A DNA stretch of 64,000 nucleotides from the IMG/VR virus record IMGVR_UViG_3300048593_000385, one strand, 5' to 3'. A program made the position numbers and the translations under genes. This stretch comes from a virus (Duplodnaviria > Heunggongvirae > Uroviricota > Caudoviricetes). Shown piece after piece: positions 4,703-33,366 of this stretch (position 1 is the first letter of the stretch; each line of letters opens with the position of its first letter). The notes below the pieces were generated by a model. That model was not told the DNA's origin. It searched no databases and was given only the letters and a program-made list of their open reading frames with translations.

Positions 4703-4704
4703 TG

Positions 4705-5538: not shown

Positions 5539-5565
5539 TATTCACCTAAATATTTCTGTTACTTC

Positions 5566-5573
5566 TATTTATA
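5566..5573 (-). promoter_or_regulatory. T4-type late promoter TATAAATA for the baseplate operon
   Basis: Minus strand reads CACTATAAATAG about 28 nt upstream of the ATG at 5538. Confidence 0.5.
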
Positions 5574-5586
5574 GTGTGGACCCAGA

Positions 5587-7274: not shown

Positions 7275-7292
7275 TATTAAAGTGAGGATACT

Positions 7293-7991: not shown

Positions 7992-8167
7992 GGCTGAGTC
8001 ATAATACTCTGCTGAATTATTACTATTTGATTTTTAATTTGGCTCAGCACCATAAATATTCAATTGGAGAGATTGAAGCGATGTTTCCTTTCGAACGGGA
8101 CATTTATATTGGTTTGTTATACAAGATGATACAGGATGAAATAGCAGAAAACAAAAAAGGGTAAACG

Positions 8168-10231
8168 GTGGCCAGAAGAGATCCAAGCAGAACAGTAAGC
8201 ATTCATGGTGATAAGTACACCTATGATCCTGACAAAAACAAATGGATGTCAGGAAAGAAGGAAGCCACACCTGCAACAGCTGCGATGCTGGACATGGTTC
8301 TTGAACAACTGAGCCCAGACTCGGACGAAGAAGTTGAATCGTTCGTAGGAACAGCCAACATCACCCCACAAGATACTCCTGACGAAGAATCGCCAGAAGC
8401 AATACGTGACAAAGAAGAAGCTCACGAAAGAAAGCAAGAAGCCCAAGAAGATATGGAGGATTCGCCTCCTCCAGCAGAAGCAGAAGCCGAGCAGCTCAAG
8501 CCACCACCATTAGAACCCACATCGCTGAAGCCGCCTGAGCCTGAGCCAGAAGTTCCGACACCAGAGCCGACTCCTGCTGCACCAGAGCCAACTCCTCTCG
8601 AGAGAAGAGCTGGGACACTCAAGGATGAGTATACTGAGAGACTTAGAGAACGACTAGCCAAGCGTATGTCTCTGTTGAGGTTGTTTACTGACAAGCTAGA
8701 AGATCCTAAAAAGGCACCACAGGCTACTCGAGCTGCTGAGCAAGTCAAACCAAAACCTCTTGAAGCTGATCAGCTGAAACCTACTGCCGAGCAAACTGAT
8801 CAAGCTGCTCCTCAAGCAGAAGCAGAGCCAGCAAGAGAGCAAACTCCATTCGAGAGAAGATTCGGTAGACTCAAGGATGAATACACCGAAAGGTTTGCTG
8901 AGAGAATAAAGAAGCGCATGCCTCTGGCAAGGCTATTCACTGACAGGTTGGAAGACCCTAAGAGTGTTGCTAAGAAAGAGTCAACACCAGCCGATACACC
9001 AGCTGCTAAAGGCATTGGTGGATTCAGCAAAGAAGCAATTGATGCTCTCAAATCCATCGACAATTCTATAAAAGAAATTCTTGGTCTGTTCAAAGAGAAC
9101 AAAAAAGAGCAGAAACAAGACCAAACAAGAGAAACGACCGAAGAGCAGAAACAAGAACTTCAATCTGAATCTGCCAAAAGAGAACAGGCTGTCGACAATC
9201 TAGAGCAAAGAGGATTCGCCGATAGACCAGAGACTATGTTTAAGGCTCCGGAACCGCAACCTCTGCAGACAGATGATGCATATGAAGAGCCTGATTCTGA
9301 TGAAGGGTTTGGTCAGCAAATAAAGCAATATGCTGCCAAAAAAATCAAAGGTGGATTGAGAAGCAGAGGAAAGAGATTATTCTCTGGCATTAAAAGCAAG
9401 CTAGGGTTTGGTGCTGCTGCAGAAGTAGCAGAAGTAGCTGCCAAAGAACCTAAGATTGCTGAAGAGATAGCCTCTACAGGAACCAAAAGATTCAGAGATA
9501 AAGCAACTGGAAGATTTGTAACACAAGCAGTTGAAAAAGAAGGTGTCAAGGCTGCAGAAAAAGTTGGAGCCAAAGGCATCGCCAAAACTGCAGGCAGAAG
9601 TCTTCTAAAGAAAATTCCTGGAGTTGGACTTCTTGCTGGTCTGGCGTTTGGTGCTGGTCGTTTGATGAAAGGCGACCTGCTGGGTGCAGTCGGCGAAGTC
9701 GGCAGCGGATTGGCTTCGACAGTTCCTGGAGTTGGCACGGCAGCAAGTGTTGCTATTGATTCTGGCTTGGCCGCAAGAGATATCTACAAGTCTAAGGATG
9801 CAGAAAAAGAGCCAAGAGAATATGCTGATGGTGGCATCGTCAATAATCCGAAGCCACTTACATTGTTCGCAGATGGTGGTGTTGTAGATTCTCCTACAGC
9901 ATTCTCGCATGAAGGCGGAACAGGGATTATGGGAGAAGCTGGACCAGAAGCTATCATGCCTCTACAGAAAGGTGCAGATGGGAAGCTGGGCGTTAAGATG
10001 CAAGCTGATCCTGTTCCTAAAAATAGTATTACTCCTCAGACTAATGCTCTTGAACAAGCAGAAGAACAGAGAAAACTGGCCGAGCAGAAGAAGGAACAAA
10101 CTCCTGGAGCAAGTCCTACAATTATAAATAATAGTACTACCAATAACAACCAAAGTGGTGGCAGTGGTGGCGGTTCAGTCCCTACTGCTGGTCCAAGGAA
10201 TTCTCTGGATCTCAATTATTATGCTCAATAA
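8168..10231 (+). CDS. Putative tail tape-measure / gp29-like protein with internal duplication
   Basis: 687 aa. It has a Pro/Glu-rich spacer and a duplicated about 45-aa module (ERRAGTLKDEYTERLRERLAKRMSLLRLFTDKLEDPK vs ERRFGRLKDEYTERFAERIKKRMPLARLFTDRLEDPK). A Gly/Ala/Lys-rich amphipathic stretch and the C-terminal YADGGIV/FADGGVV motifs complete it. A rho-independent terminator follows at 10542-10573. Confidence 0.35.
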   Translation: MARRDPSRTVSIHGDKYTYDPDKNKWMSGKKEATPATAAMLDMVLEQLSPDSDEEVESFVGTANITPQDTPDEESPEAIRDKEEAHERKQEAQEDMEDSPPPAEAEAEQLKPPPLEPTSLKPPEPEPEVPTPEPTPAAPEPTPLERRAGTLKDEYTERLRERLAKRMSLLRLFTDKLEDPKKAPQATRAAEQVKPKPLEADQLKPTAEQTDQAAPQAEAEPAREQTPFERRFGRLKDEYTERFAERIKKRMPLARLFTDRLEDPKSVAKKESTPADTPAAKGIGGFSKEAIDALKSIDNSIKEILGLFKENKKEQKQDQTRETTEEQKQELQSESAKREQAVDNLEQRGFADRPETMFKAPEPQPLQTDDAYEEPDSDEGFGQQIKQYAAKKIKGGLRSRGKRLFSGIKSKLGFGAAAEVAEVAAKEPKIAEEIASTGTKRFRDKATGRFVTQAVEKEGVKAAEKVGAKGIAKTAGRSLLKKIPGVGLLAGLAFGAGRLMKGDLLGAVGEVGSGLASTVPGVGTAASVAIDSGLAARDIYKSKDAEKEPREYADGGIVNNPKPLTLFADGGVVDSPTAFSHEGGTGIMGEAGPEAIMPLQKGADGKLGVKMQADPVPKNSITPQTNALEQAEEQRKLAEQKKEQTPGASPTIINNSTTNNNQSGGSGGGSVPTAGPRNSLDLNYYAQ

Positions 10232-10242
10232 GGAGAAAATAA

Positions 10243-10488
10243 ATGAAAAAGATTCTCGATTATCTAAAAGGTATGATGCAGGATAGCCAAGGTTCTCCGT
10301 CGTCAAAACGTTGGGTTACTATTCTTGCTGTACTTTTGGTCGCTGTGGGCTATGTTGCTAATTTGTTTTGGGATTACACTGTAGAGCAATTTATGTTCGA
10401 GTCAATGATGTATATTGTTATTGCTGGTCTTGGTATCACTGGAGCTGAAAAATTCGCTCCGAAAAAGTCACCAACAGACAGTGAATAA
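10243..10488 (+). CDS. Small membrane protein (holin-like?)
   Basis: 81 aa with a single strong TM helix (ILAVLLVAVGYVANLFW) plus a second hydrophobic segment. SD AAGGAG upstream. Confidence 0.4.
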   Translation: MKKILDYLKGMMQDSQGSPSSKRWVTILAVLLVAVGYVANLFWDYTVEQFMFESMMYIVIAGLGITGAEKFAPKKSPTDSE

Positions 10489-10541
10489 ATAAAACGATTG
10501 GAAGATGTGGCAAACAATAAAACATAAGCCGCATACAACTT

Positions 10542-10573
10542 GGGGAGAGGTTTTTGGCCTCTCCCCTTTTTTG
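10542..10573 (+). terminator. Rho-independent terminator ending the plus-strand structural block
   Basis: GGGGAGAGG-TTTTTGG-CCTCTCCCC hairpin followed by TTTTTTG. Confidence 0.6.
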
Positions 10574-10738
10574 TTATTCGACGATCAACTCAGGTCCTCC
10601 GCCTTCGGTCCATTCCTGAACCGCAGCTTCGGCAATTTCCTTAGACTCGACACGACTCTCATGAACCTTCTGTCCATTTTCAAATCGTTTCACAGTCCAA
10701 GCCATAAAATTCGAGTTAAACTCGTAAGATGCATTTCT
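10565..10738 (-). CDS. Small hypothetical protein (57 aa, below ORF-track threshold)
   Basis: Hand translation gives MARNASYEFNSNFMAWTVKRFENGQKVHESRVESKEIAEAAVQEWTEGGGPELIVE. It directly follows the GapR-like gene on the same strand. Confidence 0.3.
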
Positions 10739-10745
10739 TGCCATA

Positions 10746-10985
10746 TTAGTCGATTCCTAGTGCTGCTTTGTATGTATCAAGGATTGCTTCCATCTCAGCG
10801 CGATCATGAGATTCCATCTTGCGCAGACGAACAATCTGCCTCATGATTTTGCCATCGTAACCACGAGATTTGGCTTCGCTGTAGACATCTTTCTTGTCAT
10901 CGCGAATGCTCTTTTCTTCTTCTTCAAGACGTTCAATTCGCTCAATAAGCAAACGAAGTTCGTCTGCTGAAACATTACCACTCAT
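10746..10985 (-). CDS. gapR: GapR-like nucleoid-associated protein (DUF2312/UPF0335 family)
   Basis: 79 aa. [49 protein letters not shown] matches the hallmark DUF2312/GapR consensus ([34 protein letters not shown]). This family is essentially restricted to Alphaproteobacteria and their phages. Confidence 0.7.
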
Positions 10986-11008
10986 TATAAAATCTCCATA
11001 TTGAAAGT

Positions 11009-11082
11009 TGGATGCTCCTTTAGGACTCGAACCTAAATTGACGGATTCAAAGTCCGATCTCTTACCTTTAGAGGAAGGAGCA
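11009..11082 (-). tRNA. tRNA-Gln (anticodon TTG)
   Basis: Hand-folded cloverleaf: acceptor TGCTCCT/AGGAGCA, D GCTC..GAGC-like, anticodon loop CTTTGAA, T-arm TTAGG-TTCGAGT-CCTAA, CCA encoded. Confidence 0.6.
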
Positions 11083-11091
11083 GCTAGTCAA

Positions 11092-11292
11092 TTACTTGCT
11101 GTCAGGTGCATGAGCTGCACGAGCTTCGCTGTGATCGCGGTCGGCTGGGTTAACAGCTACATCGGCTGGGGCAGCTTCAGTAACAGCTGTATTGGCTTCA
11201 GTAGCAGCTTCAGTAGCAGCTTCTGGTGCTTCCTGAGCACATGCAGAAGTAAGAGCAACAACAGCAGCGGCGATAAAAGTTTTGATATTCAT
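11092..11292 (-). CDS. Small secreted lipoprotein
   Basis: 66 aa with signal peptide and lipobox (VALTSAC), followed by an Ala/Glu/Thr-rich low-complexity region. SD AAGGA upstream. Confidence 0.4.
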   Translation of the reverse strand: MNIKTFIAAAVVALTSACAQEAPEAATEAATEANTAVTEAAPADVAVNPADRDHSEARAAHAPDSK

Positions 11293-11320
11293 GTGTTAAT
11301 CCTTAGAATAAAATTGAAAC

Positions 11321-11412
11321 TGGAGGAAGCGGTGGGATTCGAACCCACGGTACGCTCATCACGTACGGCAGTTTTCAAGACTGCAGGCATCAACCACTCG
11401 CCCACGCTTCCG
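11321..11412 (-). tRNA. tRNA-Ser (anticodon TGA), long variable arm
   Basis: Type II tRNA fold with anticodon loop CTTGAAA, variable arm GTACGTGATGAGCGTACC, T-arm GTGGG-TTCGAAT-CCCAC, CCA encoded. Confidence 0.6.
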
Positions 11413-19057: not shown

Positions 19058-19061
19058 AAAA

Positions 19062-19078
19062 GGAGGCTCGAAGCCTCC
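19062..19078. terminator. Bidirectional hairpin terminator
   Basis: GGAGGCT-CGA-AGCCTCC, flanked by AAAAA on one side and TTAATT on the other. It separates the convergent genes 18908-19057 (+) and 19079-19363 (-). Confidence 0.5.
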
Positions 19079-19363
19079 TTAATTATTCACAACATTTTCT
19101 AGAATGGCAATAAACTCATCGATCTTTTTTCCTCGATGTGGCCAATAGATATACTCATTTTTGTCTGCATCTTTCTTAAGATTTAGCAGCAGAGGCATGA
19201 TCATTTTGTAGATCTTTTCGACCTTTACATTTGATGCTTCAGTTACCTCTTTGGTGACCTGCTGGACAACAGTCGTTTCTTTGATCTTGAAGTCTTGCTC
19301 GGAGACAGTGGTGAATCCAAAGTCGAACGACTCGTCGTCATACTCAAATGTTTGTTTGGTCAT
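19079..19363 (-). CDS. Hypothetical protein
   Basis: 94-aa ORF at the end of the sugar operon. Confidence 0.45.
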   Translation of the reverse strand: MTKQTFEYDDESFDFGFTTVSEQDFKIKETTVVQQVTKEVTEASNVKVEKIYKMIMPLLLNLKKDADKNEYIYWPHRGKKIDEFIAILENVVNN

Positions 19364-19844
19364 GGCTTTTACCTTTTAGAAAATAGTGTTCTTTTATATA
19401 GGCTATCGTTGTCTTCACGTCAACATGGACAATCGCTTCACCGCCAGCTTCAATGAAATCTTGACAATTGTTTGCTTGATCATCAATCAAAAGATAATTC
19501 TCTCGAGCAAATTGTTTCTTGATGCCTTTAGAGGGAACGATGATGGTCGGCAGGTCAATTCCGTTCTTGCGCAGAGCTTCAAGCTTCTGGTCAACAATTT
19601 CTTCAAATCTGGATGCACCACCAGCTGATGATAGAAAATTGACGTTTACATTTTCACAAAGAAACTCTATCAATTCATAAGCATATGGTAGAAGAGGCAG
19701 ATCCGCGAACCCACCAACGTCGATAAATGCAGGAAATCCTTCGTTCCACCATTTTTCTTTGTCATTTAGCTGGTCGCCGACCACACTATGAAAATCAAAG
19801 ACAACTCCATCAAGATCTAGAAAGACAAAATCAATCTGTTTCAT
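19344..19844 (-). CDS. gmhB: HAD-family phosphatase, likely D,D-heptose 1,7-bisphosphate phosphatase (GmhB-like)
   Basis: 166 aa. N-terminal FVFLDLDGVVFD matches the HAD motif I DxDGT/V. Context is GmhA and a GHMP kinase. Confidence 0.6.
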   Translation of the reverse strand: MKQIDFVFLDLDGVVFDFHSVVGDQLNDKEKWWNEGFPAFIDVGGFADLPLLPYAYELIEFLCENVNVNFLSSAGGASRFEEIVDQKLEALRKNGIDLPTIIVPSKGIKKQFARENYLLIDDQANNCQDFIEAGGEAIVHVDVKTTIAYIKEHYFLKGKSHDQTNI

Positions 19845-20443
19845 CAGTATTTAATATCCCTTGGATCTTTGTTAGAAGCCCAACGTCTCATCAGTTGAGC
19901 CATGAAATGCATAATGGCTTGGCTGGCATCTTCAATGATACCATAATTGTCAGAATCGATATGAATGACAATGTTAGCAAGTTGTTTCGCATCGCCACCA
20001 TCAAATCCAACAATGGCAATAGTTTCCATTCCCTTTTCTTCTGCCTTAGAAATCGCATTAAGAATGTTCGGGGAATTACCGCTGGAACTGATAGCGATCA
20101 GAACATCGGCAGCACCATCTTTGACCTGCCATTCAATTTGTTTTGAAAAGATTTCATTATATCCAATGTCGTTGGCAATGGCAGAGATGAGAGGGAAGTT
20201 GGACGCTAGAGATGTGATGTTCAACCACTGCCCTAGATCTGATTCCATAGCAACACCCTTCATACAGTCACAGGTCAGATGTTCCGCGATAGCTGCCGAA
20301 CCGCCATTACCACAGACATAAATGTTTCCTTTGGTAGCGTAAATCTTTCTGGTTGCTAGGTCAAGTTCTTTCAGATCAACAGTGCTCAATGCACGTGACA
20401 GTTCTGCTGCGTATGAATCTAGAGTATAATATGGTGTTGTCAT
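19844..20443 (-). CDS. gmhA: SIS-domain phosphoheptose isomerase (GmhA)
   Basis: 199 aa. GNGGSAAIAEHLTCDCMKG corresponds to the GmhA GNGGSAADAQHFAAEL motif, and the C-terminal SSSGNSPN matches the SIS motif. Confidence 0.8.
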   Translation of the reverse strand: MTTPYYTLDSYAAELSRALSTVDLKELDLATRKIYATKGNIYVCGNGGSAAIAEHLTCDCMKGVAMESDLGQWLNITSLASNFPLISAIANDIGYNEIFSKQIEWQVKDGAADVLIAISSSGNSPNILNAISKAEEKGMETIAIVGFDGGDAKQLANIVIHIDSDNYGIIEDASQAIMHFMAQLMRRWASNKDPRDIKY

Positions 20444-20445
20444 GT

Positions 20446-21390
20446 TTAATCCTTGTATACTACTCTTGCCCCGTCTAATGCGACAGCCACATCAAGACAG
20501 ACTCGATCAGAAAACTCATGCTTCAATTTGTTTTTGTTGTCAGTCAGAGCCAGCATATATCCACCTCCTCCTGCGCCAAGCAGCTTTGCCCCTGACGCAC
20601 CAGCCTTCAGGCATCGGTCATAAAGAGAATCAATCTCTGGGCTGCTGATTCCACCTTCCAGCTGTTTCTTAAACTTCCATGCTTCGTTGAGCAGTGGACC
20701 GTAGAGATCGTAGGTCGGAGAAAGGTCGGCATGCATATCCGCCATGTGTGACATTTCACGAATGAGGTATGTCTTTTGATCAAAATCAATTTTATTGAGA
20801 ATCTCTGCAGCATGGCGCTGAATGTTTGTCGGAATCAAAACCATGGAGCTATCGATGCCTTTAGGGTCGATTCTCTGGACCAACACCCGATCGCTGGCAA
20901 GATATTCAATATAATTCATGCCACCGAAGGCAGAGGCATACTGATCTTGCTTCCCGATTGCCCAGCCGCACATATCGATCTCAATGTTACATGCAGCTTC
21001 CGCTAACTCATATTCGCTATACCGTTTACCGTTAGGGAAATATTCAGCAAGAGCAGCCACCAGTGCACAGGCGAAAGCAGAAGAACCTGCCAACCCTGTG
21101 CCAACTGTAGGAATATCAGCGAACGTGGTGATCTCGATATTAGATTTGATACCGAAATATTTTAAGGCATTCTTGACAATTTCATTTTGAATGTCATCAA
21201 CAGCAGTCACCAATTCTTGTTTAGAATAGTTGATCTTGATGTGATTCTGAGGAGTTCTTCCTACTGCAACGTAGACATACTTGTCAATCGCAGTAGAGAT
21301 TGTTGATCCGCCCCAACGAAGGTAGTGGGCAGGAATATCCGACCCACCACCAAAGAAGGAAACTCGAAGAGGTGCCTTAGCAAGAATCAT
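20446..21390 (-). CDS. hddA: GHMP-family sugar kinase (D-glycero-D-manno-heptose 7-phosphate kinase, HddA-like)
   Basis: 314 aa. MILAKAPLRVSFFGGGSDIP at the N-terminus and the GHMP motif PTVGTGLAGSSAFACALVAAL. Confidence 0.75.
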   Translation of the reverse strand: MILAKAPLRVSFFGGGSDIPAHYLRWGGSTISTAIDKYVYVAVGRTPQNHIKINYSKQELVTAVDDIQNEIVKNALKYFGIKSNIEITTFADIPTVGTGLAGSSAFACALVAALAEYFPNGKRYSEYELAEAACNIEIDMCGWAIGKQDQYASAFGGMNYIEYLASDRVLVQRIDPKGIDSSMVLIPTNIQRHAAEILNKIDFDQKTYLIREMSHMADMHADLSPTYDLYGPLLNEAWKFKKQLEGGISSPEIDSLYDRCLKAGASGAKLLGAGGGGYMLALTDNKNKLKHEFSDRVCLDVAVALDGARVVYKD

Positions 21391-21392
21391 AA

Positions 21393-22421
21393 TTACGACT
21401 TGTAGATAAACTTGGGAGCAGGAACAGACAGATCCTTACCTTCGTATTCATTCAACAACGATTCGCAGAGCGCATTCCATTGACTACCAATCTTATCCCA
21501 GTTGTAGCGATAGTCGGCATAAGTCTTTTGGAACTGTAGATACGGCATCATATCATTGTCGCGCATCTTTTGGATTGTGTCATCCAGAACAGCATAGAAC
21601 ATATTCGCATGAACATTGACATCCTGATCCCAATGGTACTGAATGGTAATGCTACCCGAGGTATCGGTAAGACCAGCATAGTTCGGGTGAACACAGACAG
21701 CACCAGATGACATTGCCTCGATCAACGACTGGCTGTTGCATTCTGGCCAGATCGAAGGATAGGCAAAGATATGTGCCTTTGCGACAGTCTCACGAACTGT
21801 TTCGTTCGGAGCAAAGCCATGGTAGTTAATCTTAGGATGATTACGACACTTGTCAAACAGATCCTCGAACTGTTGATCAGCATTTTCCCAACCGTAGATC
21901 TTATAGCTTGAGAAAACGTCAAGCACGATATTGTCATACTTTTCGCATAGCTTCTCGAACACAGGAACAAGAATGTTCAGACCACGTTGAGGAGTGCTGG
22001 TGTAAACCAAACGAATTTCTTCTTTCGGATCACTCTTGTTGATTGGGCCAAAAGGAGTTGTCGCAGTATCAATGACACAGCTTTGCTGAGTGTGCGGAAT
22101 TCCCAAATGATTTTGGTACATGTTCATCTGCCACTGGCCACAGTAGACAATCTTGTGGAAACGGTTGCGACTGTTCTCGGCGGTCAAATGCTTGGTCTCG
22201 GGATCCCAAGGCAAATCGTGCAACCAATAGATACGGATGCGATCATCATGCAGCTCGCGCACACGCGAGGGGATAATCTGAAACTTTTCGTGGTACTCTG
22301 GCTTCAATCGAGCCAGAACACCTTCCATCATTCGCTCTGTCCCACCTTGAGACTTTGCGTTCAATTCATTACGTTCCCAAATACTACTCATTGTAATTTC
22401 CCATCGTAAGTTCGGAGCCAT
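21393..22421 (-). CDS. Putative glycosyltransferase (GT-B, family 1/4-like)
   Basis: 342 aa. The C-terminal half (IRLVYTSTPQRGLNILVPVF ... AYPSIWPECNSQSLIEAMSSGAVCV) resembles the GT1/GT4 nucleotide-sugar-binding domain. Confidence 0.45.
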   Translation of the reverse strand: MAPNLRWEITMSSIWERNELNAKSQGGTERMMEGVLARLKPEYHEKFQIIPSRVRELHDDRIRIYWLHDLPWDPETKHLTAENSRNRFHKIVYCGQWQMNMYQNHLGIPHTQQSCVIDTATTPFGPINKSDPKEEIRLVYTSTPQRGLNILVPVFEKLCEKYDNIVLDVFSSYKIYGWENADQQFEDLFDKCRNHPKINYHGFAPNETVRETVAKAHIFAYPSIWPECNSQSLIEAMSSGAVCVHPNYAGLTDTSGSITIQYHWDQDVNVHANMFYAVLDDTIQKMRDNDMMPYLQFQKTYADYRYNWDKIGSQWNALCESLLNEYEGKDLSVPAPKFIYKS

Positions 22422-23383
22422 GGTTGCCCAACAAGCATCTGGCTACTAATAGATTCAAAGTGTGAAGTGATGATGTCGGCGAGATCATACTTTGGACCTT
22501 CTGGCCACATCAACGACAATTTATATGGATCGCCAATCAGGAATCCAGGATCGCCTGGACGAACTTCCGCAATATCATATTCCAGAGGATATAGTTTTGC
22601 GAATGTAAGAGCAAGTTGCAGATTCGACACAGGTTTGCCACTGCAAACATTGAAGGTGTCGTATTCACGTTCAGGCTTATTATATAGTTGTTCTGCTGCA
22701 GCAACCAGAGCATCACACACATCAGCTACGTGGATATAATCTCTTACGCATGTTCCATCAAAGGTGTCGTATTCATTACCGTTGATGTAGAATGTGTCAT
22801 CAGTCAAAGATGCCTTTGACATTTTGGTAAGGATATGTGGTTGATTAGCAGCTTGGCCGATACCTTTGTATGCACCAGCAACATTGAAGAAGCGCATTGA
22901 GTATGCCTTGAGGCCATACGCTTCGCATGATTCTTTCAACATCATCTCACCAACCCACTTGGTTGAGCCATAGGGATTGATTGGACTTCCAGCCACAACT
23001 TCAGGCAAAGGATCAGGGCTGCGCATATCACCATATGTTGCAGCAGAGGATGCAAAGATAAATGCACCCTTCCAGTTTTCTCTAGCTAAATTGGACAGCA
23101 TATCGCACATACTACTAACGTTATTATCATAGTAGTATAGTGGTTTGGATACCGATGGCCCAAGCAAACTGTTAGCGCCAAGATGGAAGATTGCATCAAC
23201 GCCATCCAGATCGCCGTCAGAGGCAATTGTTGCATAATTATCAATAAAAAACTCATCAGTGTTCCAGTCGTAATTGTCACACTTTACGTCTACGCCAATG
23301 ACATAATAACCAGCTTCTTTCAGCTTTAGCTGGAGAACACGCCCGATGAACCCTGATGCTCCAGTAACAATCGCCTTCTTCAT
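22388..23383 (-). CDS. NAD-dependent nucleotide-sugar epimerase/dehydratase (SDR extended family)
   Basis: 331 aa. N-terminal Rossmann motif MKKAIVTGASGFIGRVL and the YxxxK catalytic pair further downstream. Confidence 0.8.
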   Translation of the reverse strand: MKKAIVTGASGFIGRVLQLKLKEAGYYVIGVDVKCDNYDWNTDEFFIDNYATIASDGDLDGVDAIFHLGANSLLGPSVSKPLYYYDNNVSSMCDMLSNLARENWKGAFIFASSAATYGDMRSPDPLPEVVAGSPINPYGSTKWVGEMMLKESCEAYGLKAYSMRFFNVAGAYKGIGQAANQPHILTKMSKASLTDDTFYINGNEYDTFDGTCVRDYIHVADVCDALVAAAEQLYNKPEREYDTFNVCSGKPVSNLQLALTFAKLYPLEYDIAEVRPGDPGFLIGDPYKLSLMWPEGPKYDLADIITSHFESISSQMLVGQPWLRTYDGKLQ

Positions 23384-23736: not shown

Positions 23737-24264
23737 TTATTCTACATCCTCAAAGACCATATAGCTCTTCACCGAATTGAGACGGAAGCTGCGCCATTCG
23801 TTCTTCTCTAGATCGAAGACAACAACCAGACCATCGGTATCCTTACGAGTCCGTTCAGTTTTCTTTTCAGGAGCAGTGTATTGCTCAGAGATAACCTGAG
23901 AGTTCTTGGTGCAGAGCATGGTGCGCTCGGTGCCATCAGCCTTGGTGAACACAACACTGAGAGTTGCACCTTCATCGAGAGCCTGTTCAATTTCACTCTT
24001 CTCGAACGATGCCTTCAGTTCCTGGAAACCACCAATGTGAGTCCAATTTTCTTTGAGTTTGTTAGTATCTTGGATCAGCCAAATCTGTGGAACAGACCGA
24101 GCTTCTGGGGCCATAGCAAACAAATCTTCACGGTCATAATCTACGTTCAGTGTAAGATAGTCAAACTTCATACCTTTGGAGGTCAGAAGTGCCTTAGCCT
24201 GTTCACAGAAAGGGCAATCATCTTTGCCGTAAATCACATAAATATTTTCCATAATCATTTCCAT
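23737..24264 (-). CDS. Glutaredoxin-domain protein (NrdC-like) with C-terminal extension
   Basis: 175 aa with an N-terminal CPFC active site in a glutaredoxin context (VIYGKDDCPFCEQAKALL). Confidence 0.6.
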   Translation of the reverse strand: MEMIMENIYVIYGKDDCPFCEQAKALLTSKGMKFDYLTLNVDYDREDLFAMAPEARSVPQIWLIQDTNKLKENWTHIGGFQELKASFEKSEIEQALDEGATLSVVFTKADGTERTMLCTKNSQVISEQYTAPEKKTERTRKDTDGLVVVFDLEKNEWRSFRLNSVKSYMVFEDVE

Positions 24265-28329: not shown

Positions 28330-30411
28330 TTATTTTGAGGTTGCGCGATAAACACCATCCCAATTTTTAGGAGCAGCTTTGGCTTCGTTCATACGATCGA
28401 GCATGGCTTCGTAGTAGCCTTTGAGTTCTCCATTCCACAATGGACCCATTTCATATGCCATGGCCATGGCTCTGCCCCAATCACCTGAGCGATATGCATC
28501 CAGGAATCTGTTGTGAGCAATTTCAGCCTTTTCGTTCTTTTCTTCAAGAACTGTATAGATTCGAGCTGGTTCAGTTTTGCCTTTAACAGCAATCAAATCA
28601 AGTTCAATTACTTGGTATACATCCCTAACCAGTTCGGCAGTTTGTGGTCCGACGATGAGTTTGACCCCATAAGGTTTGGTTTGACCTTCGAGGCGAGCAG
28701 CCAAATTAACCCCATCACCCAAGCAAGTGTAATCAAAACGCTGGTCGCTGCCCATATTACCAACAACCACAGTGGCAGTGTTAATACCAAGACCCATACC
28801 GAAAGCTGGAATGCCTTCCCCTTTAATTTCGCCATTAAATATCTCCAGGTCTTTTAGCATCTGGAAAGCAGTGCGCACCGAATCCAAAGCATGTTGAGGG
28901 TTATCTACTGGTGCATTCCAGAAAGCCATCTGTGCGTCACCAATATACTTATCAAGTGTTCCTTTGTTTTCCAGAATAGCTCTTGTCATCACAGTCATAT
29001 ATCTATTCATTATGGAAGTAAGACCTTCAACGTCTTCGCCATAGTGTTCGGAAATAGTAGTGAAGCCACGAACATCAGTAAACATAATCGACAACTGTTG
29101 TTTTGTTCCACCTAGCTTGAGTAACTCTGGCTGTTTCTGCAGCTGAGCAACCAAGTCTGGCGACAGATACGTGCCAAACTGTTTCTTAATCTGTTGCTTT
29201 TGTAGGAATTCGCTGATAAACTTGGCAGTATATAGATGTATATATACAAACAGTGCAGCAGCAATATTGAACGACACATCAAAAAGGATGTGTTCTTTGG
29301 TAAATAAATAGAATGGTAGATACAGATATCCGCCCATGATCACGGCGATATATATAATTGAATAGCGGAAACGAGAAACAACAATCAATGACAGGCAAAC
29401 AAAAACAAATGCACCAAGATCAGCAAGTTGCCCCCACAGAGGAATCGCAACCGAATCACCATTTATCAGAGTCTGAAGAATTGACGCTTGCAACTGATGG
29501 GGATACTGCGCACCTTGTGGAGTCGCTACAGGATTCGCGATACCAGCGGCAGTTACGCCAAGTATCACAATTTTACCTGTCAGATCAGGCAAAGCCTTGT
29601 CACCAATTTCGAATGACGCAAATTTATAGTTCGGATTGACGAACACTCGACCATATTCATCAGTTTTAATTGTTTCGAAGGAAGGAATTCGTAATGCCTC
29701 AACTCCCGTCTGATTTATCTTCGCTTGATATGACGGATCTCCAGCAGCTACACGCAGCATCTCTAGAGCAAATGCGGGATAGTATTCGCCAGATGATTGT
29801 GCTAGAAGAGGAACTCGCCGTACGACCCCGTCTGCCTCAGGTAATGTTGATGTTATCCCAACACCGACAGCGGCTTCTTGCAGAGGTGCAATATTACTTA
29901 GAACGCATGGATATTGAGGAAGAAATTCAGTTGGTTCTCCATCGCCGATTACGGCAACGCCTGTCTTCCGAATTGTCGCACTTGCCTGAGGTGAACCTCG
30001 GCCAGTGGTCGATCCAGCAATACAGTCAGCGGAAACAGTCTGACTGAGTACAACTGGATATTCGCTTAGAGCATTCGCAAGAACTCTATCAGTCCCCAAG
30101 CGGTCAGGCTCAGGCATAAGTATAGTGCTGCCAACAGCGCCAGCCCCTCTGCTGTATATATCGCCAATGATTTTAGCATGGACTTCCCTCGGGAAAGGCC
30201 ACTGACCATATTTTTCAATTGATTTCTCCCCTAAATTAGCGACTACAATCTGCTCAGATTGCTTTGGTGTATCCAGCATGATGTAGTCATAAAATTTAAG
30301 GCGAGACGCTTCAACCAAAAATGGATCTTGTAGCTTTACTACAAGCAGTAGCGCAAATGTGATCAGTACCAACCACGGAGACAATAAAATTTTAATCGCT
30401 TTGTTTGACAT
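28330..30411 (-). CDS. Membrane-bound class III adenylate cyclase with periplasmic CHASE2 sensor domain
   Basis: 693 aa. N-terminal TM, then about 300 aa extracytoplasmic CHASE2-like domain, 3-4 TM helices, then the cyclase homology domain (FTDVRGFTTISE ... DKYIGDAQMAFWNAP ... GINTATVVVGNMG ... DYTCLGDGVNLAARLE). The Lys before YIGD indicates ATP specificity. Confidence 0.85.
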   Translation of the reverse strand: MSNKAIKILLSPWLVLITFALLLVVKLQDPFLVEASRLKFYDYIMLDTPKQSEQIVVANLGEKSIEKYGQWPFPREVHAKIIGDIYSRGAGAVGSTILMPEPDRLGTDRVLANALSEYPVVLSQTVSADCIAGSTTGRGSPQASATIRKTGVAVIGDGEPTEFLPQYPCVLSNIAPLQEAAVGVGITSTLPEADGVVRRVPLLAQSSGEYYPAFALEMLRVAAGDPSYQAKINQTGVEALRIPSFETIKTDEYGRVFVNPNYKFASFEIGDKALPDLTGKIVILGVTAAGIANPVATPQGAQYPHQLQASILQTLINGDSVAIPLWGQLADLGAFVFVCLSLIVVSRFRYSIIYIAVIMGGYLYLPFYLFTKEHILFDVSFNIAAALFVYIHLYTAKFISEFLQKQQIKKQFGTYLSPDLVAQLQKQPELLKLGGTKQQLSIMFTDVRGFTTISEHYGEDVEGLTSIMNRYMTVMTRAILENKGTLDKYIGDAQMAFWNAPVDNPQHALDSVRTAFQMLKDLEIFNGEIKGEGIPAFGMGLGINTATVVVGNMGSDQRFDYTCLGDGVNLAARLEGQTKPYGVKLIVGPQTAELVRDVYQVIELDLIAVKGKTEPARIYTVLEEKNEKAEIAHNRFLDAYRSGDWGRAMAMAYEMGPLWNGELKGYYEAMLDRMNEAKAAPKNWDGVYRATSK

Positions 30412-31483
30412 TTATAATAGTCCCGCCCGATGGTTGATTTACTTCGATTAGAAATGACTTTCCATTACTATCTATGTATAATGTTTTGTTTGAATCTTTT
30501 TTGACAACAATGTCAACAGTACTACTTAGTGTCCGAACGAGCCGTAGATAATCTCCAGAAAGAATTGTAGTTATCTGTGTAGTATTATCTAGCCCAAATG
30601 TTGTTCCGCACAACTTGGTGTCTTCTCTGGTGACACAATTATCTGCTCCTAAAGCATTGTCTAAAAAGTCTTCGCCGAGGTAATTTGCATCGATTGCATT
30701 AATATCAAGATCCGAACTTGCAAGTGCATTTTCTTGTAGATCATCTTTGGCAAGGAAATCTACATCAAGTTCAGAGAGATCCAGCATGTTAGTCCTGATA
30801 TCTCTCAATTCCTCCTCAGTCTTGAATTCTTCGGCAGGTGCTACGATGAGCATATTATCAATTTGATCAAGTGACATATTCAGAATGACTGGACGAGTAG
30901 GTCTGCTGTCTGTGGTTGATACTATGGTCGCTTGAAACGCTCTGGTCAAAATGACTGAGCCAGCAGCATTTGAAACAGTAATCTCACCAACTGATCCATC
31001 TTCCTCTGGCAGAAGGATGACCAAACTCTTTCCAAAATCATCGACTGTGGTCGCAAAGTCTGTTCCACGAACAGCAATCGTGGCTGTTGGTGTTCTCAGA
31101 TTAATATTGCCTTTGTTGATTTTTCCGGATTTACCTGTCGCAAATCTGGCAGTCCCCGAAGCAAATTTGAGAACCATTTTTGATGTTGATGGATTGCCGC
31201 TGTAAACAAAATCATCAACAACAAGCCTAGAATTTTCAGTGACTTTGACGGTAGAGTCGTCTAAAAAAGTTATCTCGACTCTACCGTTTCCAGTCTGCAC
31301 TTTGTCCATCTTGGCAATAGGTAACTGAAGTCGTGAAGGAACCTTTGCAGTTTTCTTCACAACTTCGCTCGAACCTCGAGTTTGAGTTACCTTACCAATA
31401 TTAGCATGGACCACCTGCGTTGCACTGATTAATAGTAATAGTGCTGCCGTTGCTCGTGCTATCAACTTTAAGTGTGTCAACAT
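30392..31483 (-). CDS. Secreted FecR-domain protein
   Basis: 363 aa. Signal peptide (LLLLISATQVVHA). FecR-type beta-rich pattern including ATIAVRGTDFATTV (the a.v.GT.F.v hallmark). Confidence 0.6.
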   Translation of the reverse strand: MLTHLKLIARATAALLLLISATQVVHANIGKVTQTRGSSEVVKKTAKVPSRLQLPIAKMDKVQTGNGRVEITFLDDSTVKVTENSRLVVDDFVYSGNPSTSKMVLKFASGTARFATGKSGKINKGNINLRTPTATIAVRGTDFATTVDDFGKSLVILLPEEDGSVGEITVSNAAGSVILTRAFQATIVSTTDSRPTRPVILNMSLDQIDNMLIVAPAEEFKTEEELRDIRTNMLDLSELDVDFLAKDDLQENALASSDLDINAIDANYLGEDFLDNALGADNCVTREDTKLCGTTFGLDNTTQITTILSGDYLRLVRTLSSTVDIVVKKDSNKTLYIDSNGKSFLIEVNQPSGGTIINVKQSD

Positions 31484-32096
31484 TTGTTGTGCTCTGCTGA
31501 TTTATTGTTAATGTATTTGTACTGCCTGTAAGAACCAATTCAATATTCTTCCCAGCATTGCCATTCTGCAGCGTAGTAATAGTATTACCATCACCAACAA
31601 TAGTCTTAGTGTTCACCACATCATCCGCATTTATGGTGGATGTCATTGTGTTGGTGTCACCAGTGATTGCGATAGTTTGTGTAGCATTAGTGGCTGATGC
31701 CGCTGTACCCTGATTAAAGGTCAAGTCGTTTGAATCCCCAGTCACTGTAAGTGTTTTGGTGGATCCAGCCACACTACCGCTATCGCCTTCGTCATACGTC
31801 AACTTATTGTTGTCGCCAGTAACAGTAACATCCTTATCGACATTATCTGCTTGAACAATAGAGCCTTGGATAATGTTTCCATTACCTTCTTGTTTGACTG
31901 TAACTGTTTGGTTATTACCTTCAATTACTACTCGATTCTGCTCAGAACCGATGCTGTTGGTTTGACCTTTTTGGGTAATAGTAATAGTGCTACTATCACC
32001 GACCTGATCAATAAAAATCGAGTTGGTTGTTGTTTGTGCAAAACTCACCGAACTCGTCATCAGAAACATAATGAAAAGAGCTATTTTATTTTTCAT
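31401..32096 (-). CDS. Secreted curlin-repeat protein (CsgA/CsgB-like amyloid subunit)
   Basis: 231 aa. Signal peptide. Tandem degenerate repeats of the form ITQKGQTNS / VKQEGNGNIIQG / TVTGDNNKLTYDEGDSG / TVTGDSNDLTFNQG / AITGDTNTMTS / LTGSTNTLTINQ, resembling curlin repeats (S-x5-Q-x-G-x-G-N). Confidence 0.6.
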   Translation of the reverse strand: MKNKIALFIMFLMTSSVSFAQTTTNSIFIDQVGDSSTITITQKGQTNSIGSEQNRVVIEGNNQTVTVKQEGNGNIIQGSIVQADNVDKDVTVTGDNNKLTYDEGDSGSVAGSTKTLTVTGDSNDLTFNQGTAASATNATQTIAITGDTNTMTSTINADDVVNTKTIVGDGNTITTLQNGNAGKNIELVLTGSTNTLTINQQSTTNVDTLKVDSTSNGSTITINQCNAGGPC

Positions 32097-32101
32097 TACC
32101 C

Positions 32102-32920
32102 TTATTCCTTTAATGATACCGATCGATCGATATCGATCTTCGGTGCGAACTTAAAATATCCTTTCTCGATACCCTGTTTTATCAATTGTAAAACTGCTTC
32201 TTCAATCGCCATTTTGACTGCCATGGTGTTGGCTTCATTTTCGGTCATGCCTGCTTCGGCTTCCACCAATTTTGTGCCAACATCGACAAATTTAAACAGT
32301 GACAGATCTTTACCGACAGATAATACTGTTTTAGAAACTTGCACATTAAGAACAACTTCTCCAGTATTAGTGTTGACTCCTCGCAGAGAAACAACAACCT
32401 GATCTTTTCGGTAGACGACAGAGCCTCCTACACCAAGATATCTTGCTCCTGCTCCGCCTGTCTGTATGTTACTATCATACCCGATAATACCACCTTGGAT
32501 GATGAGCCCAGCGAACAGCATTGGTTCGAGTTTATTTGCACCCTCACCAAGATATTCTTCACGAGTCTGTCTAACAATCTGACGTTCTTTGGCAAGATCC
32601 TCGACACGATTTCGTTCTACAACTCTAAACCATGTTCCTCCACCTGCATCCCTCAAAGCAGAAATTAATAGTGGTGTTCCGCCTTGTGTGACTGCAGTTG
32701 ATATGCTGGCAATACCATCTTTATCTCTGCGTTGACCTGTCATATCAGGAAAGTCATAAACCGCTACTACTGCTTGTCTGTCAGGCGCAGGAAGGTTGTA
32801 TAATTCTTTGACTTGTGTCTTTACAATCTTTGCATCTTCTTTTAATTGAAGACCAACAGGTCCAGATGCCACGCAACCACACAGAAGAAAAGGTAATAAT
32901 AGAATCTTCCACATTACCAC
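32102..32920 (-). CDS. csgG: Curli production assembly/transport outer-membrane lipoprotein CsgG
   Basis: 272 aa. Lipobox LLCGC. Extensive collinearity with E. coli CsgG, for example AVVAVYDFPDMTGQ (VSVYNIQDETGQ) and GLIIQGGIIGYDSNIQTGGAGARYLGVGG (NIMVEGSIIGYESNVKSGGVGARYFGIGA). Confidence 0.9.
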   Translation of the reverse strand: MVMWKILLLPFLLCGCVASGPVGLQLKEDAKIVKTQVKELYNLPAPDRQAVVAVYDFPDMTGQRRDKDGIASISTAVTQGGTPLLISALRDAGGGTWFRVVERNRVEDLAKERQIVRQTREEYLGEGANKLEPMLFAGLIIQGGIIGYDSNIQTGGAGARYLGVGGSVVYRKDQVVVSLRGVNTNTGEVVLNVQVSKTVLSVGKDLSLFKFVDVGTKLVEAEAGMTENEANTMAVKMAIEEAVLQLIKQGIEKGYFKFAPKIDIDRSVSLKE

Positions 32921-33366
32921 TTGAATCCACTTGTTGGAACTATAATCTCAGTTTGATTGCCAGCTGCATCAATGATCACAAGTTTAATTTCTGTTTCAGT
33001 TTTTTCATACTTGATAGTGTTGCCTTCGAGTATGAATTCTCCAGCCTCTCCGCCATCTTCGCCAAACAAATTATTGGTAAGCTGTTGTGCCAGCTGAGAA
33101 TAGATACGAGACTGCAAGTTATTCAAGAAACGATTCAAAATAGAGTTTTTTTCTTCGAGAGCCTTTGCTTTCAAATCAGCTTCTATCTTGTCCTGTATAG
33201 TTTTTTTACGCAGAGTCTCTTGATTTTCAATCGTCAGCCATTGCGCTCCAGCATTGACGCCAGAGAATGAAGGATTTTTAAATTGATGGACCAGTTCACT
33301 TGCTTGCAGGTGGCTGCTTGTCAGGAGCAGCATTAGTGCCGTCACTCGTTTTAGCATCTTTCCCAT
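32914..33366 (-). CDS. csgF: Curli assembly protein CsgF-like
   Basis: 150 aa. Signal peptide, then LVHQFKNPSFSGVNAGAQWLTIENQ (E. coli CsgF: [25 protein letters not shown]). C-terminal KLVIIDAAGNQTEIIVPTSG ([30 protein letters not shown]). Confidence 0.7.
   Translation of the reverse strand: MGKMLKRVTALMLLLTSSHLQASELVHQFKNPSFSGVNAGAQWLTIENQETLRKKTIQDKIEADLKAKALEEKNSILNRFLNNLQSRIYSQLAQQLTNNLFGEDGGEAGEFILEGNTIKYEKTETEIKLVIIDAAGNQTEIIVPTSGFKW

Follow-up and report, generated by a model that had tools for sequence, protein, structure and literature searches.

What is made by the enzymes encoded at positions 19344-23383 of this phage DNA, and what is the product used for? An earlier note on the same stretch (64,000 nucleotides, hereafter the window) had described five consecutive genes of nucleotide-heptose synthesis at this location. 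The ORFs are real and fill these coordinates: ORF calling gave five consecutive minus-strand frames, all of which are likewise annotated as genes on the contig of origin (JGI 3300044716 Ga0453708_0000020, 160,657 bp). We examined the identity of each gene product, the conservation of the locus in related phages and the source of the nucleotidyl step.

Layout of the operon

The operon follows a gene for an nrdC-like glutaredoxin with a fused WYL_2 domain (23737-24264, minus strand; Pfam Glutaredoxin 1.9e-10, WYL_2 2.1e-14), within the early region of nucleotide metabolism and replication. That region also encodes ribonucleotide reductase (RNR), ThyX and dCMP deaminase. The phage carrying the operon is marine and T4-like.

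Neighbouring genes of the operon overlap or stand 2 nt apart. The stop of the first gene, an extended SDR, overlaps the start of the glycosyltransferase (GT) gene by 4 nt under the public gene call, which places the GT start at 22391. The final gene of the transcription unit, p94 (19079-19363, minus strand), is a small ORF with no assigned function, sharing 20 nt with the preceding HAD gene. Gene calls on three contigs include it, and it is kept after the HAD gene in two relatives (L003 and L107). Directly after the p94 stop, an intrinsic-terminator-like hairpin (19060-19080, minus strand) closes the operon: read from 19080 to 19060, its 9-bp stem includes 5 G-C pairs, the loop is 3 nt long and the tail is TTTTAT. 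The operon is predicted to be transcribed as a single unit ending at 19060, and the HAD gene is predicted to be co-transcribed with the cassette.

Enzymes of the operon

The isomerase (19844-20443, minus strand; 199 aa) is a GmhA-like SIS-domain sugar-phosphate isomerase. It matched Pfam SIS_2 at 9.6e-19, and its best NCBIfam matches were phosphoheptose isomerases. Against PDB sequences, the top 13 matches were all phosphoheptose isomerases (GmhA; 6e-22 to 2e-18), with DiaA weaker at 5e-15. The sedoheptulose-7-phosphate isomerase of the earlier note is therefore upheld as GmhA-like, and the protein probably converts sedoheptulose-7-phosphate to heptose-7-phosphate. Its score against TIGR00441 gmhA was 105 bits, under the curated equivalog cut-off of 209.45. 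Functional residues were compared at N53, G55, S121, T122, S123, S126, E66 and Q173 (Mtb numbering) and at H64 and H183 of the B. pseudomallei enzyme (PMC7705670). The Asn, the Gly, three Ser and both His are kept, while T122 is replaced by Ser, E66 by Asp and Q173 by Glu. The metal and catalytic positions thus read His, Asp (for Glu), Glu (for Gln) and His, and the Asp/Glu pair was also present in three other phage isomerases inspected (L116, L121 and L179). Because characterised GmhA enzymes carry Glu66 and Gln173 at these positions (PMC7705670), another keto-sugar phosphate is possible as the substrate.

The next enzyme (20446-21390, minus strand; 314 aa) is an HddA/WcbL-like GHMP kinase, with Pfam matches to GHMP_kinases_N (2.2e-15) and GHMP_kinases_C (9.6e-10). 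The earlier note had named an HddA-like kinase and had allowed that HMM searches might reveal a kinase unrelated to heptose: the best NCBIfam match was HddA (NF049969; 2.2e-37), though its 129 bits fall under the cut-off of 600, and fucokinase followed at 2.8e-20. PDB matches to 3k85 (1.5e-33), WcbL (4usk) and the C. jejuni structure 4n3o support the same identity, as do the catalytic residues. In WcbL, R13, D22, S118-S120, Q162 and D163 are essential by mutagenesis (PMC4691232). All are kept in the phage kinase except S118, which is changed to Gly; aligned with 4usk, the residues are R9, D18, G102-S103-S104 and the Gln and Asp of 'GKQDQY'. The enzyme is probably a D-glycero-D-manno-heptose-7-phosphate 1-kinase.

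Identification of the GT gene product as a GT-B glycosyltransferase also held. The longest ORF spans 21393-22421, and the public gene call, starting at 22391, gives a 332-aa protein (21393-22391, minus strand). It matched Pfam Glycos_transf_1 (1.7e-10) and has the GT-B fold, an EX7E motif and an R/K-G diphosphate-binding motif, which mark it as a retaining, GT4-type enzyme. No match to Glyco_transf_9 (GT9, WaaC/WaaF type) was seen in the Pfam scan at E <= 0.01. EX7E and R/K-G are Leloir GT4 signatures and point to an NDP-sugar donor; since both are kept, such a donor is argued for here.

The SDR (22388-23383, minus strand; 331 aa) is an accessory gene of the cassette. It matched Pfam Epimerase at 1.9e-40 and NCBIfam galE (TIGR01179) at 187.7 bits, under the cut-off of 262.3. 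Its best PDB match was 8wxk (3e-39); the leading matches comprise more than 30 GalE structures, and all top matches are UDP-glucose 4-epimerases. The motifs 'GASGFIG' (GxxGxxG), 'YGSTK' (YxxxK) and 'RPGD' align with GalE 8wxk, and we take 'RPGD' to be the counterpart of R292/D295, which bind UDP in E. coli GalE. The protein is probably a UDP-hexose 4-epimerase. A heptose epimerase of the HldD type was rejected: heptose_epim (TIGR02197) scored 77.5 bits (cut-off 274.6) and NF008360 43.6 bits (cut-off 452). The SDR epimerase of the earlier note thus stands as an extended SDR epimerase, of GalE type and not for heptose.

The HAD protein (19344-19844, minus strand; 166 aa) is an NT5C-family phosphatase, as indicated by PHROG, the profile of its homologues and its predicted structure. 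On its own it gave no Pfam or NCBIfam match. It matched PHROG 2643 ('5'-3' deoxyribonucleotidase') at 6.8e-21, and 58 of 61 homologues matched Pfam NT5C (5'(3')-deoxyribonucleotidase). The family profile found only 5'(3')-deoxyribonucleotidases (mdN/cdN) in the PDB, at 1e-5 and weaker. The AF2 model has a HAD phosphatase fold (pLDDT 91.4), and its Foldseek matches were HAD hydrolases and deoxyribonucleotidases, with HisB-N only among the weak ones (3.5e-4). The motifs are DxDGV, SSxGG, K and DD. On the homologue and profile results, GmhB (HisB-type HAD) was rejected, and the GmhB-like phosphatase of the earlier note was not borne out. A role as the heptose 7-phosphatase of the cassette is possible. 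The HAD gene directly follows the isomerase gene only in the clade of the window phage (41-76% identity).

Relatives of the cassette and the nucleotidyl step

About 160 related phage loci were compared. In these, GT, kinase and isomerase form, in that order, the conserved core, which follows an nrdC-like glutaredoxin. The counts below come from 124 unique related loci; flank counts refer to 69 loci with full flanks, and the GT-anchored set to 65. The kinase had the GT upstream in 82 of 82 loci and the isomerase downstream in 91 of 92; this strict linkage of the kinase-isomerase pair to the GT agrees with the single cassette that had been described. The GT-kinase and kinase-isomerase junctions mostly overlap (-32, -4 or -1 nt). 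The GT was also found alone: kinase and isomerase were present in 54 of the 65 GT-anchored loci and both absent in 11 (GT alone or with the SDR only), and phages phiM12 and DLP6 carry the GT without either. A glutaredoxin homologue preceded the cassette in 68 of 69 full-flank loci, as well as in Cr30 and phiM12; 31 of the 69 included the SDR. In one relative (L115), the cassette also contains a gene for transaldolase, an enzyme that interconverts sedoheptulose-7-phosphate, the presumed isomerase substrate.

The Caulobacter phage Cr30 has the same order of glutaredoxin, epimerase, GT, kinase and isomerase, with identities of 47% (GT), 37-40% (kinase), 46% (isomerase) and 35% (SDR). Unlike the window phage, it lacks the NT5C-type HAD protein and p94, and has a 50-aa ORF between kinase and isomerase. 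A 365-aa conserved neighbour stands right after the Cr30 isomerase, whereas the homologous 360-aa gene of the window phage is about 20 kb away. For the Cr30 cassette genes, a literature search brought up no paper addressing their function.

No nucleotidyltransferase is present among the operon genes, as the earlier note had observed. The 64-kb window holds no PF01467, PF00483 or PF12804 label, and searching it with a profile built for the cassette-linked cytidylyltransferases gave nothing (best E 0.25). The check elsewhere in the genome was productive: a 133-aa PF01467 cytidylyltransferase, TagD/HldE-domain-II-like, lies 1.3-1.7 kb beyond the left edge of the window, about 21 kb from the operon, on a contig 100% identical to window positions 1-11346. 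In 31 related loci a PF01467 gene stands directly upstream of the SDR or GT, and the 133-aa protein (55% and 50% identity) is an ortholog of such cassette-adjoining genes; the Cr30 ortholog, 'TagD', lies just beyond rnh in the neighbourhood of the cassette. PDB matches of the phage cytidylyltransferase were 3elb (4e-23), TagD (1e-13) and HldC (5e-6), which places it closer to phosphoethanolamine and glycerol-3-phosphate cytidylyltransferases than to HldC. RefSeq often labels phage homologues 'bifunctional heptose 7-phosphate kinase/heptose 1-phosphate adenyltransferase'. The family occurs in 131 phage records, the majority without the kinase. In a reconstituted phage gene cluster, a PF01467-type enzyme was needed for heptosylation (bioRxiv 10.1101/2023.12.21.572611).

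The earlier note had suggested, besides the host, the 664-aa protein at 57126-59120 as a possible source of this step, one that we regard as extremely improbable. Residues 36-250 match PHROG 3041 'cytidyltransferase' (6e-42), and the letters 'TPSH' form a degenerate (T/H)xxH motif. However, sequence searches of Pfam and the PDB gave no match; the protein is missed by the cassette-linked cytidylyltransferase profile at the best E given above, and lies 35 kb from the operon. Its N-terminal nucleotidyltransferase-like domain was counted in 513 phage records, mainly of cyanophages, and the kinase in just 11, which makes the protein a general T4-like core gene unlinked to the cassette. By these comparisons, the 133-aa enzyme is the better candidate.

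In bacteria, a GHMP HddA is paired with an NTP_transferase-fold HddC, and a PfkB kinase with HldC or HldE domain II and the beta anomer; we know of no precedent for the phage pairing of a GHMP kinase with a cytidylyltransferase-fold enzyme. The phage set resembles the HddA-type pathway in its GmhA-like isomerase and its GHMP anomeric heptose kinase, whose catalytic residues agree, and a retaining-type GT4 fits an alpha-linked NDP-sugar. It differs in lacking an NTP_transferase-fold HddC and a HisB/GmhB-type phosphatase, having instead the NT5C-type HAD protein and a cytidylyltransferase-fold enzyme elsewhere in the genome; the isomerase has Asp/Glu for the Glu/Gln of GmhA, and all scores are under equivalog cut-offs. 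With the ADP-L-glycero-beta-D-manno-heptose pathway (GmhA, HldE or HldA plus HldC, GmhB, HldD; GT9), the 133-aa enzyme shares the PF01467 fold of HldC and HldE domain II. In contrast to that pathway, the phage kinase is GHMP and not PfkB, the SDR is GalE-like and not HldD (77 vs 188 bits), the GT belongs to GT4 and lacks a Glyco_transf_9 match, and the cytidylyltransferase is nearer TagD/ECT than HldC. The Synechococcus cyanophages Bellamy and SynMITS9220M01 have a homologous GHMP kinase (30-34% identity), SDRs and a GT, noted as 'heptose-related LPS synthesis' auxiliary genes (PMC7378029). Their clusters differ in an adjacent 'nucleotidyl transferase', two SDRs, a carbamoyltransferase and the genomic position, and their GT is not an ortholog.

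Proposed pathway and its alternatives

The reading that we favour, and to which we give an even chance, is that the operon is a phage auxiliary glycosylation cassette with the GT4 enzyme, the GHMP heptose kinase and the GmhA-like isomerase as its core. All four enzyme assignments are under the curated NCBIfam cut-offs. Going by family membership, the isomerase would convert host sedoheptulose-7-phosphate to D-glycero-D-manno-heptose-7-phosphate. The kinase, with its conserved catalytic residues, would act on C1, probably of the alpha anomer, to give heptose-1,7-bisphosphate, and the 7-phosphate would be lost through the NT5C-type HAD protein or host GmhB. Heptose-1-phosphate would then be nucleotide-activated, most likely by the 133-aa cytidylyltransferase, whose gene is present and whose substrate we infer, and the retaining GT4 enzyme would put the sugar on an acceptor. 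The GalE-like SDR would supply a 4-epimerised UDP-hexose, to be used in the same glycan or by host transferases. The GT may use a UDP-hexose donor instead, because 11 of 65 loci, phiM12 and DLP6 carry it without kinase and isomerase, and because the SDR is GalE-like.

The genes might also serve separate ends: kinase and isomerase would only raise the host heptose-phosphate pool for LPS or capsule, GT and SDR would work on UDP-hexose, and the HAD protein would be an ordinary dNMP 5'-nucleotidase, one of the nucleotide-metabolism set around it. We consider this unlikely. Consistent with it are the NT5C family of the HAD protein, its setting with RNR, ThyX, dCMP deaminase and glutaredoxin, the different NT5C-like gene that phiM12, a phage lacking kinase and isomerase, carries in this region, the GalE-like SDR, and the 11 of 65 loci with the GT alone or with the SDR only. 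The constant company of kinase and GT (82 of 82) and the translationally coupled junctions are, however, hard to square with independence. An alpha-specific GHMP kinase would also not feed the usual ADP-L,D-heptose (beta) route (PMC4691232). Quite unlikely is a heptose phosphate as the acceptor: the GT4 enzyme would move hexose from the UDP-hexose of the SDR onto heptose-7-phosphate or heptose-1,7-bisphosphate, in the manner of sucrose-phosphate synthase and the maltose-1-phosphate synthase GlgM with their sugar phosphates, and the HAD protein would free a soluble hexosyl-heptose. In a variant, the GT would use heptose-1-phosphate without a nucleotide.

Modification of DNA, in which heptose (or hexose) would be put on a hydroxylated pyrimidine against restriction, as with glucosyl-hmC, arabinosyl-5hoC and heptosyl-5hmC, seems very unlikely. 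The enzyme logic is that of arabinosyl-5-hydroxycytosine in RB69, DLP3 and HY126: SIS isomerase, anomeric kinase, HAD phosphatase, nucleotidyltransferase and GT4-like GTs of the GT-B fold (PMC13326640). There is also a resemblance to a metavirome cluster ('contig 53') of HAD/APH, cytidylyltransferase and GT-B that yields heptosyl-5hmC (bioRxiv 10.1101/2023.12.21.572611). The GTs have PDB neighbours in common (6kih, 3mbo, 2gej and 7qsg), and the operon is surrounded by early genes of nucleotide metabolism and replication. In contrast to these systems, the phage isomerase is GmhA-type and not KdsD-type, and the kinase is GHMP and not APH-like. No 5hoC- or 5hmC-forming or DNA-hydroxymethylation gene (ThyA-homologue hydroxymethylase or hydroxylase, C5-methyltransferase plus TET) was found among the Pfam labels in about 80 kb of the genome.

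For the glycosylation cassette, our tentative choice of acceptor, somewhat short of an even chance, is a glycan of the host cell envelope (LPS core, O-chain or capsule) that would be altered as the phage infects. Phage heptose and GT gene sets of this kind have been annotated before, and their target was never identified. The operon appears to make an activated seven-carbon sugar from a host sugar phosphate, for transfer to a target.

Cassette layout and related loci

ORF calling upheld the five consecutive genes reported in the earlier note at 19344-23383, all on the minus strand: an SDR (22388-23383, 331 aa), a GT4-type glycosyltransferase (GT; longest ORF 21393-22421, 342 aa), a GHMP kinase (20446-21390, 314 aa), a SIS protein (19844-20443, 199 aa) and a HAD-like protein (19344-19844, 166 aa). 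The window corresponds to positions 88,252-152,251 of the metagenomic contig JGI 3300044716 Ga0453708_0000020 (160,657 bp), on which identical cassette genes were called; the contig call starts the GT at 22391 (332 aa), giving a 4-nt overlap with the SDR stop. Neighbouring cassette genes overlapped or were separated by 2 nt, a further small ORF, p94 (19079-19363, minus strand), overlapped the HAD gene by 20 nt, and a strong terminator-like hairpin (19080-19060, minus strand) followed directly. Because of the tight packing and the hairpin, the five genes and p94 seem to form the final part of a single transcription unit. No promoter was assigned, as promoter-like matches were no commoner here than by chance (17 versus 12.9 ± 3.7).

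The phage is a T4-like myovirus of marine or aquatic origin, with Pelagibacter phage HTVC008M and Methylophilales phage Melnitz among its relatives. Window genes include RNR, ThyX, a gp32-like protein, primase, PhoH and curli-type genes; the last have been described for pelagimyophages (PMC7029224). The curli-type secretion set (31401-33366, minus strand) comprises CsgG (32102-32920), a CsgF-like protein (32914-33366) and a curlin-repeat protein (31401-32096). Adjoining genes encode one protein with a FecR domain (30392-31483) and another with CHASE2 and adenylate/guanylate cyclase domains (28330-30411). A radical SAM/SPASM protein is encoded at 35549-36565 (minus strand), in the auxiliary-gene region.

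The region had no megablast match among 50,697 phage records; its relatives are therefore recognisable at protein level only. Loci anchored on the kinase (80 viral), on the GT (80 of at least 591 matches) and from genomes or MAGs (14) were fetched and annotated using the window's proteins. Their backbone order was an nrdC-like glutaredoxin (with WYL_2), a variable slot, GT, kinase, isomerase, a ~364-aa protein, a ~117-aa protein, RNase H, DUF6433, PhoH and PD-(D/E)XK, and core gene junctions mostly overlapped. The glutaredoxin and the WYL_2 (Sm-like SH3) domain are fused in the window (23737-24264, minus strand) and are two adjacent genes in most relatives.

Among 124 unique loci, the GT accompanied the kinase in all 82 with enough upstream sequence, and the isomerase lay downstream of the kinase in 91 of 92. 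Loci anchored on the GT carried both kinase and isomerase in 54 of 65 cases and neither in 11, and the two kinds were interleaved by GT identity. Of the two protein queries, GT and kinase, only the GT one matched seven cultured phages (phiM12, phiM7, phiM19, phiN3, DLP6, RHph_I1_18 and vB_OspM_OC); neither kinase nor isomerase was found near the GT in DLP6 or phiM12, the two loci inspected. Of 69 full loci, 31 had an SDR. The gene order of the cassette recurs in Caulobacter phage Cr30, which is so annotated in GenBank. In cyanophages Bellamy and SynMITS9220M01 a more distant kinase lies beside a nucleotidyl transferase (PMC7378029).

Related loci also carried sugar-tailoring extras: a TylF-like O-methyltransferase, a class I methyltransferase and a GDP-mannose-dehydratase-like SDR. 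One variant cassette (L115:6984-11027) has a second-type SIS protein (23% identity) and a transaldolase-like gene between GT and kinase, together with a classical SDR and a Gfo/Idh/MocA-type oxidoreductase, all named by eye from sequence; this gene content suggests a further-modified heptose. A SAM decarboxylase-like small protein (PF02675) lies near the cassette in some phages (L155:3491-4459, L184:13185-13565) and in some is fused to a TylF-like O-methyltransferase. ORFs resembling GIY-YIG homing endonucleases by eye were seen on the strand opposite to the cassette, between GT and kinase (L106:7539-8234, L123:6809-7747 and L159:1275-1775, minus strand) or after the isomerase (L121:6788-7414); a related cluster gave a weak SegE_GIY-YIG match (E 2.8e-4). 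Upstream of the GT in L133 is a QueC-like gene of the 7-deazaguanine pathway (2414-3136), in a clade with GT and SDR present and kinase and isomerase absent. The gene hints that some relatives may modify DNA by another route.

A genome scan for a cellular origin gave nothing beyond phage-like MAG contigs, a single weak match in Pelagibacterales (L096, 26% identity) and orphan GT homologues. The orphans (~40% identity; e.g. L090:7133-8936) sit on Paraburkholderia, Burkholderia and Caballeronia chromosomes among unrelated metabolic genes (MFS, LysR, aldehyde dehydrogenase, DUF2252). In 5 of 7 loci a conserved 287-aa ORF, possibly GT-A-like and with a DxD-like motif ('WIDADI'), lies ahead of the GT homologue. 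No polysaccharide locus was found around these homologues (L089-L095), and they therefore give no functional clue.

Identities of the five enzymes

The SIS protein matched Pfam SIS_2 (1e-18). GmhA models were its top NCBIfam matches at 105 bits, under the 209 cut-off, and its 13 top PDB sequence matches were all phosphoheptose isomerases, with DiaA lower, in keeping with the GmhA-type isomerase proposed before. Comparison with the B. pseudomallei and M. tuberculosis enzymes revealed that the phosphate-binding Ser loop, the Asn, the Gly and both His are kept; Asp replaces the catalytic Glu, and Glu replaces a Gln described as "fully conserved" (PMC7705670). The same Asp/Glu pair was found in all three other phage isomerases inspected, and the phage isomerase is therefore predicted to be a divergent GmhA subfamily.

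The kinase has both GHMP N and C domains. HddA was the top NCBIfam model (2e-37; 129 bits versus a cut-off of 600), and the closest solved structures were 3k85, WcbL (4usk) and C. jejuni HddA (4n3o). The kinase keeps WcbL residues R13, D22, S119, S120, Q162 and D163, mutation of any of which kills that enzyme (PMC4691232); S118 alone is changed, to Gly. WcbL binds the alpha anomer, and its product is the alpha-1,7-bisphosphate (PMC4691232). Best model and conserved catalytic residues agree with the earlier call of an HddA-like GHMP kinase.

The glycosyltransferase was likewise borne out, as a GT4 enzyme in which the EX7E pair is invariant and an R-G motif is present. Its AF2 model is confident (pLDDT 91.5), and the family is acidic (median pI 6.0) and large (>2,800 database homologues). 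The SDR is an extended SDR, as the earlier note had it, but its placement in the heptose pathway did not stand: galE scored 188 bits versus 77 bits for heptose 6-epimerase (NCBIfam), and more than 30 UDP-Glc/Gal 4-epimerase structures headed the PDB list (best 3e-39). By these matches the SDR is clearly GalE-like.

The GmhB-like phosphatase was not sustained. The HAD-like protein itself had no Pfam or NCBIfam match and matched PHROG 2643, "5'-3' deoxyribonucleotidase". In an exhaustive HMMER search, 58 of 61 homologues matched Pfam NT5C, the sole PDB matches of the family profile were mitochondrial and cytosolic 5'(3')-deoxyribonucleotidases, and the AF2 model (pLDDT 91.4) agreed. Since homologues, profile and model all point to NT5C, the protein is not of GmhB type. 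This NT5C-type protein was limited to the window's own clade (41-76% identity), always directly after the isomerase. It was also considered as a counterpart of the phiM12 NT5C/30.2-like gene near the GT, but the BLASTP match was not significant (E 0.045, motif I only) and does not establish orthology.

The nucleotidyltransferase

The cassette was said to lack a nucleotidyltransferase, with the 664-aa protein at 57126-59120 (minus strand) as a candidate for the nucleotidyl step. The N-terminal domain of that protein matched a PHROG named "cytidyltransferase"; the protein had no match in Pfam or by PDB sequence search. The domain occurred in 513 phage records, mostly cyanophages, and the kinase in 11. 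A specific link to the cassette was rejected on these grounds; the protein is the product of a general core gene. Its cyanophage-type domain has a degenerate TPSH motif and its C-terminal part is long, low-complexity and lysine-rich; the adjoining gene encodes a DUF6267 protein (59154-60398, minus strand), forming a widespread T4-like pair.

When unassigned ORFs of related loci were clustered, a PF01467 gene of ~130-210 aa emerged, marked by the motif "FDLLHAGH" and lying directly upstream of SDR/GT in 31 loci. The Cr30 ortholog (48% identity) is annotated TagD and lies ~1 kb past rnh on the same strand as the Cr30 cassette. The family profile found nothing in the 64-kb window (best E 0.25). 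A check elsewhere in the genome, through the gene tables of contigs carrying the window's own proteins, located a 133-aa PF01467 gene just outside it. Contig L184 is identical (100%) to window 1-11346 over 11,346 nt and places this gene 1,327-1,728 nt past window position 1, with an AdoMet_dc-like gene, DUF6433, RNase H and a ~360-aa backbone protein as neighbours. The 133-aa cytidylyltransferase (L184:12673-13074) shares 55% identity with the cassette-adjacent version and 50% with Cr30 TagD. It belongs to a displaced backbone block (L184:12673-17056, 1.3-5.7 kb past window position 1; cytidylyltransferase, AdoMet_dc-like, DUF6433, RNase H, p121, p360) that adjoins baseplate genes here and the cassette in most relatives. 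In this phage, then, the block has shifted ~20 kb and been inverted, the cytidylyltransferase moving along with it.

The family's top solved relatives were phosphoethanolamine and glycerol-3-phosphate cytidylyltransferases (4e-23 and 1e-13), with HldC at 5e-6; it occurred in 131 phage records of many kinds, and HldE-based names are frequent in RefSeq. Known bacterial routes pair HddA with HddC, or HldE-I with HldE-II. A GHMP kinase with a cytidylyltransferase-fold enzyme is not known from either. Either this pairing is genuinely new or it indicates some different role for the cytidylyltransferase.

Proposed pathway, acceptor and significance

The most likely scheme, to which as a whole we give about an even chance, is five-step heptose activation and transfer. 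Established by the analysis are the family assignments, the conserved residues, the operon layout, the strict dependency of kinase on GT, and the existence and synteny of the cytidylyltransferase; each substrate, and the acceptor, are inferred. The isomerase would convert sedoheptulose-7-P to heptose-7-P and the kinase would yield heptose-1,7-bisP. The phage HAD protein or host GmhB would remove the 7-phosphate to leave heptose-1-P, the small cytidylyltransferase would form NDP-heptose, and the GT4 enzyme would attach the sugar to its acceptor. A second sugar would come from the GalE-like SDR.

Structure comparison of the GT did not discriminate between acceptors. A host envelope glycan ranks first, as a tentative choice; a protein acceptor is improbable, and a soluble one is about equally so. 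DNA as the acceptor has precedents in arabosyl-5hoC and heptosyl-5hmC (PMC13326640; bioRxiv 10.1101/2023.12.21.572611), but is similarly improbable, weakened because no gene for a hydroxylated pyrimidine was found in the half of the genome covered. Every gene called over ~80 kb, starting 10 kb left of the window and ending ~6 kb past its right edge, was checked by Pfam label; the labels included ThyX, dCMP deaminase and RNR, with no ThyA homologue, C5-methyltransferase or TET, and the Cr30 annotation has only an ordinary thymidylate synthase and dCMP deaminase. An MshA-like inositol-phosphate acceptor, considered as Cr30 encodes an inositol-1-P synthase, was rejected: a homologue was found in neither the window nor any related locus. 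A phage-specific hybrid pathway is an unlikely reading. In it, a GHMP alpha-kinase and the cytidylyltransferase-fold enzyme would make an unusual activated heptose, for example CDP- or ADP-alpha-heptose, or the GT4 enzyme would use heptose phosphate directly. In >100 aquatic T4-like phage lineages the sugar would then go onto a non-classical target: phage DNA, a protein of virion or host, or some soluble metabolite.

Heptose-pathway genes have been annotated earlier in T4-like phages, namely Cr30 (GenBank), cyanophages and pelagimyophages (PMC7378029; PMC7029224); literature on Cr30 and heptose and on phage-encoded GmhA/HddA yielded no functional study. New here are the conserved three-gene core with its dependency pattern, the reassignment of the HAD protein and of the SDR, and the location of the cassette-linked cytidylyltransferase just past the window edge. 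Phage sugar genes, their targets not known, are usually dismissed as "LPS-related auxiliary genes". Testing is worthwhile for this cassette: it is widespread (>120 distinct loci) at a fixed position in T4-like aquatic phages, and its kinase and isomerase strictly depend on one glycosyltransferase. Because Cr30 is cultured, genetically tractable and shares the cassette, the cassette's function is directly testable. The outcome would tell whether abundant aquatic myoviruses alter the surface of their host, add sugar to components of their own or produce a novel activated heptose, and would also show the extent to which pentose-phosphate carbon is diverted in infection.
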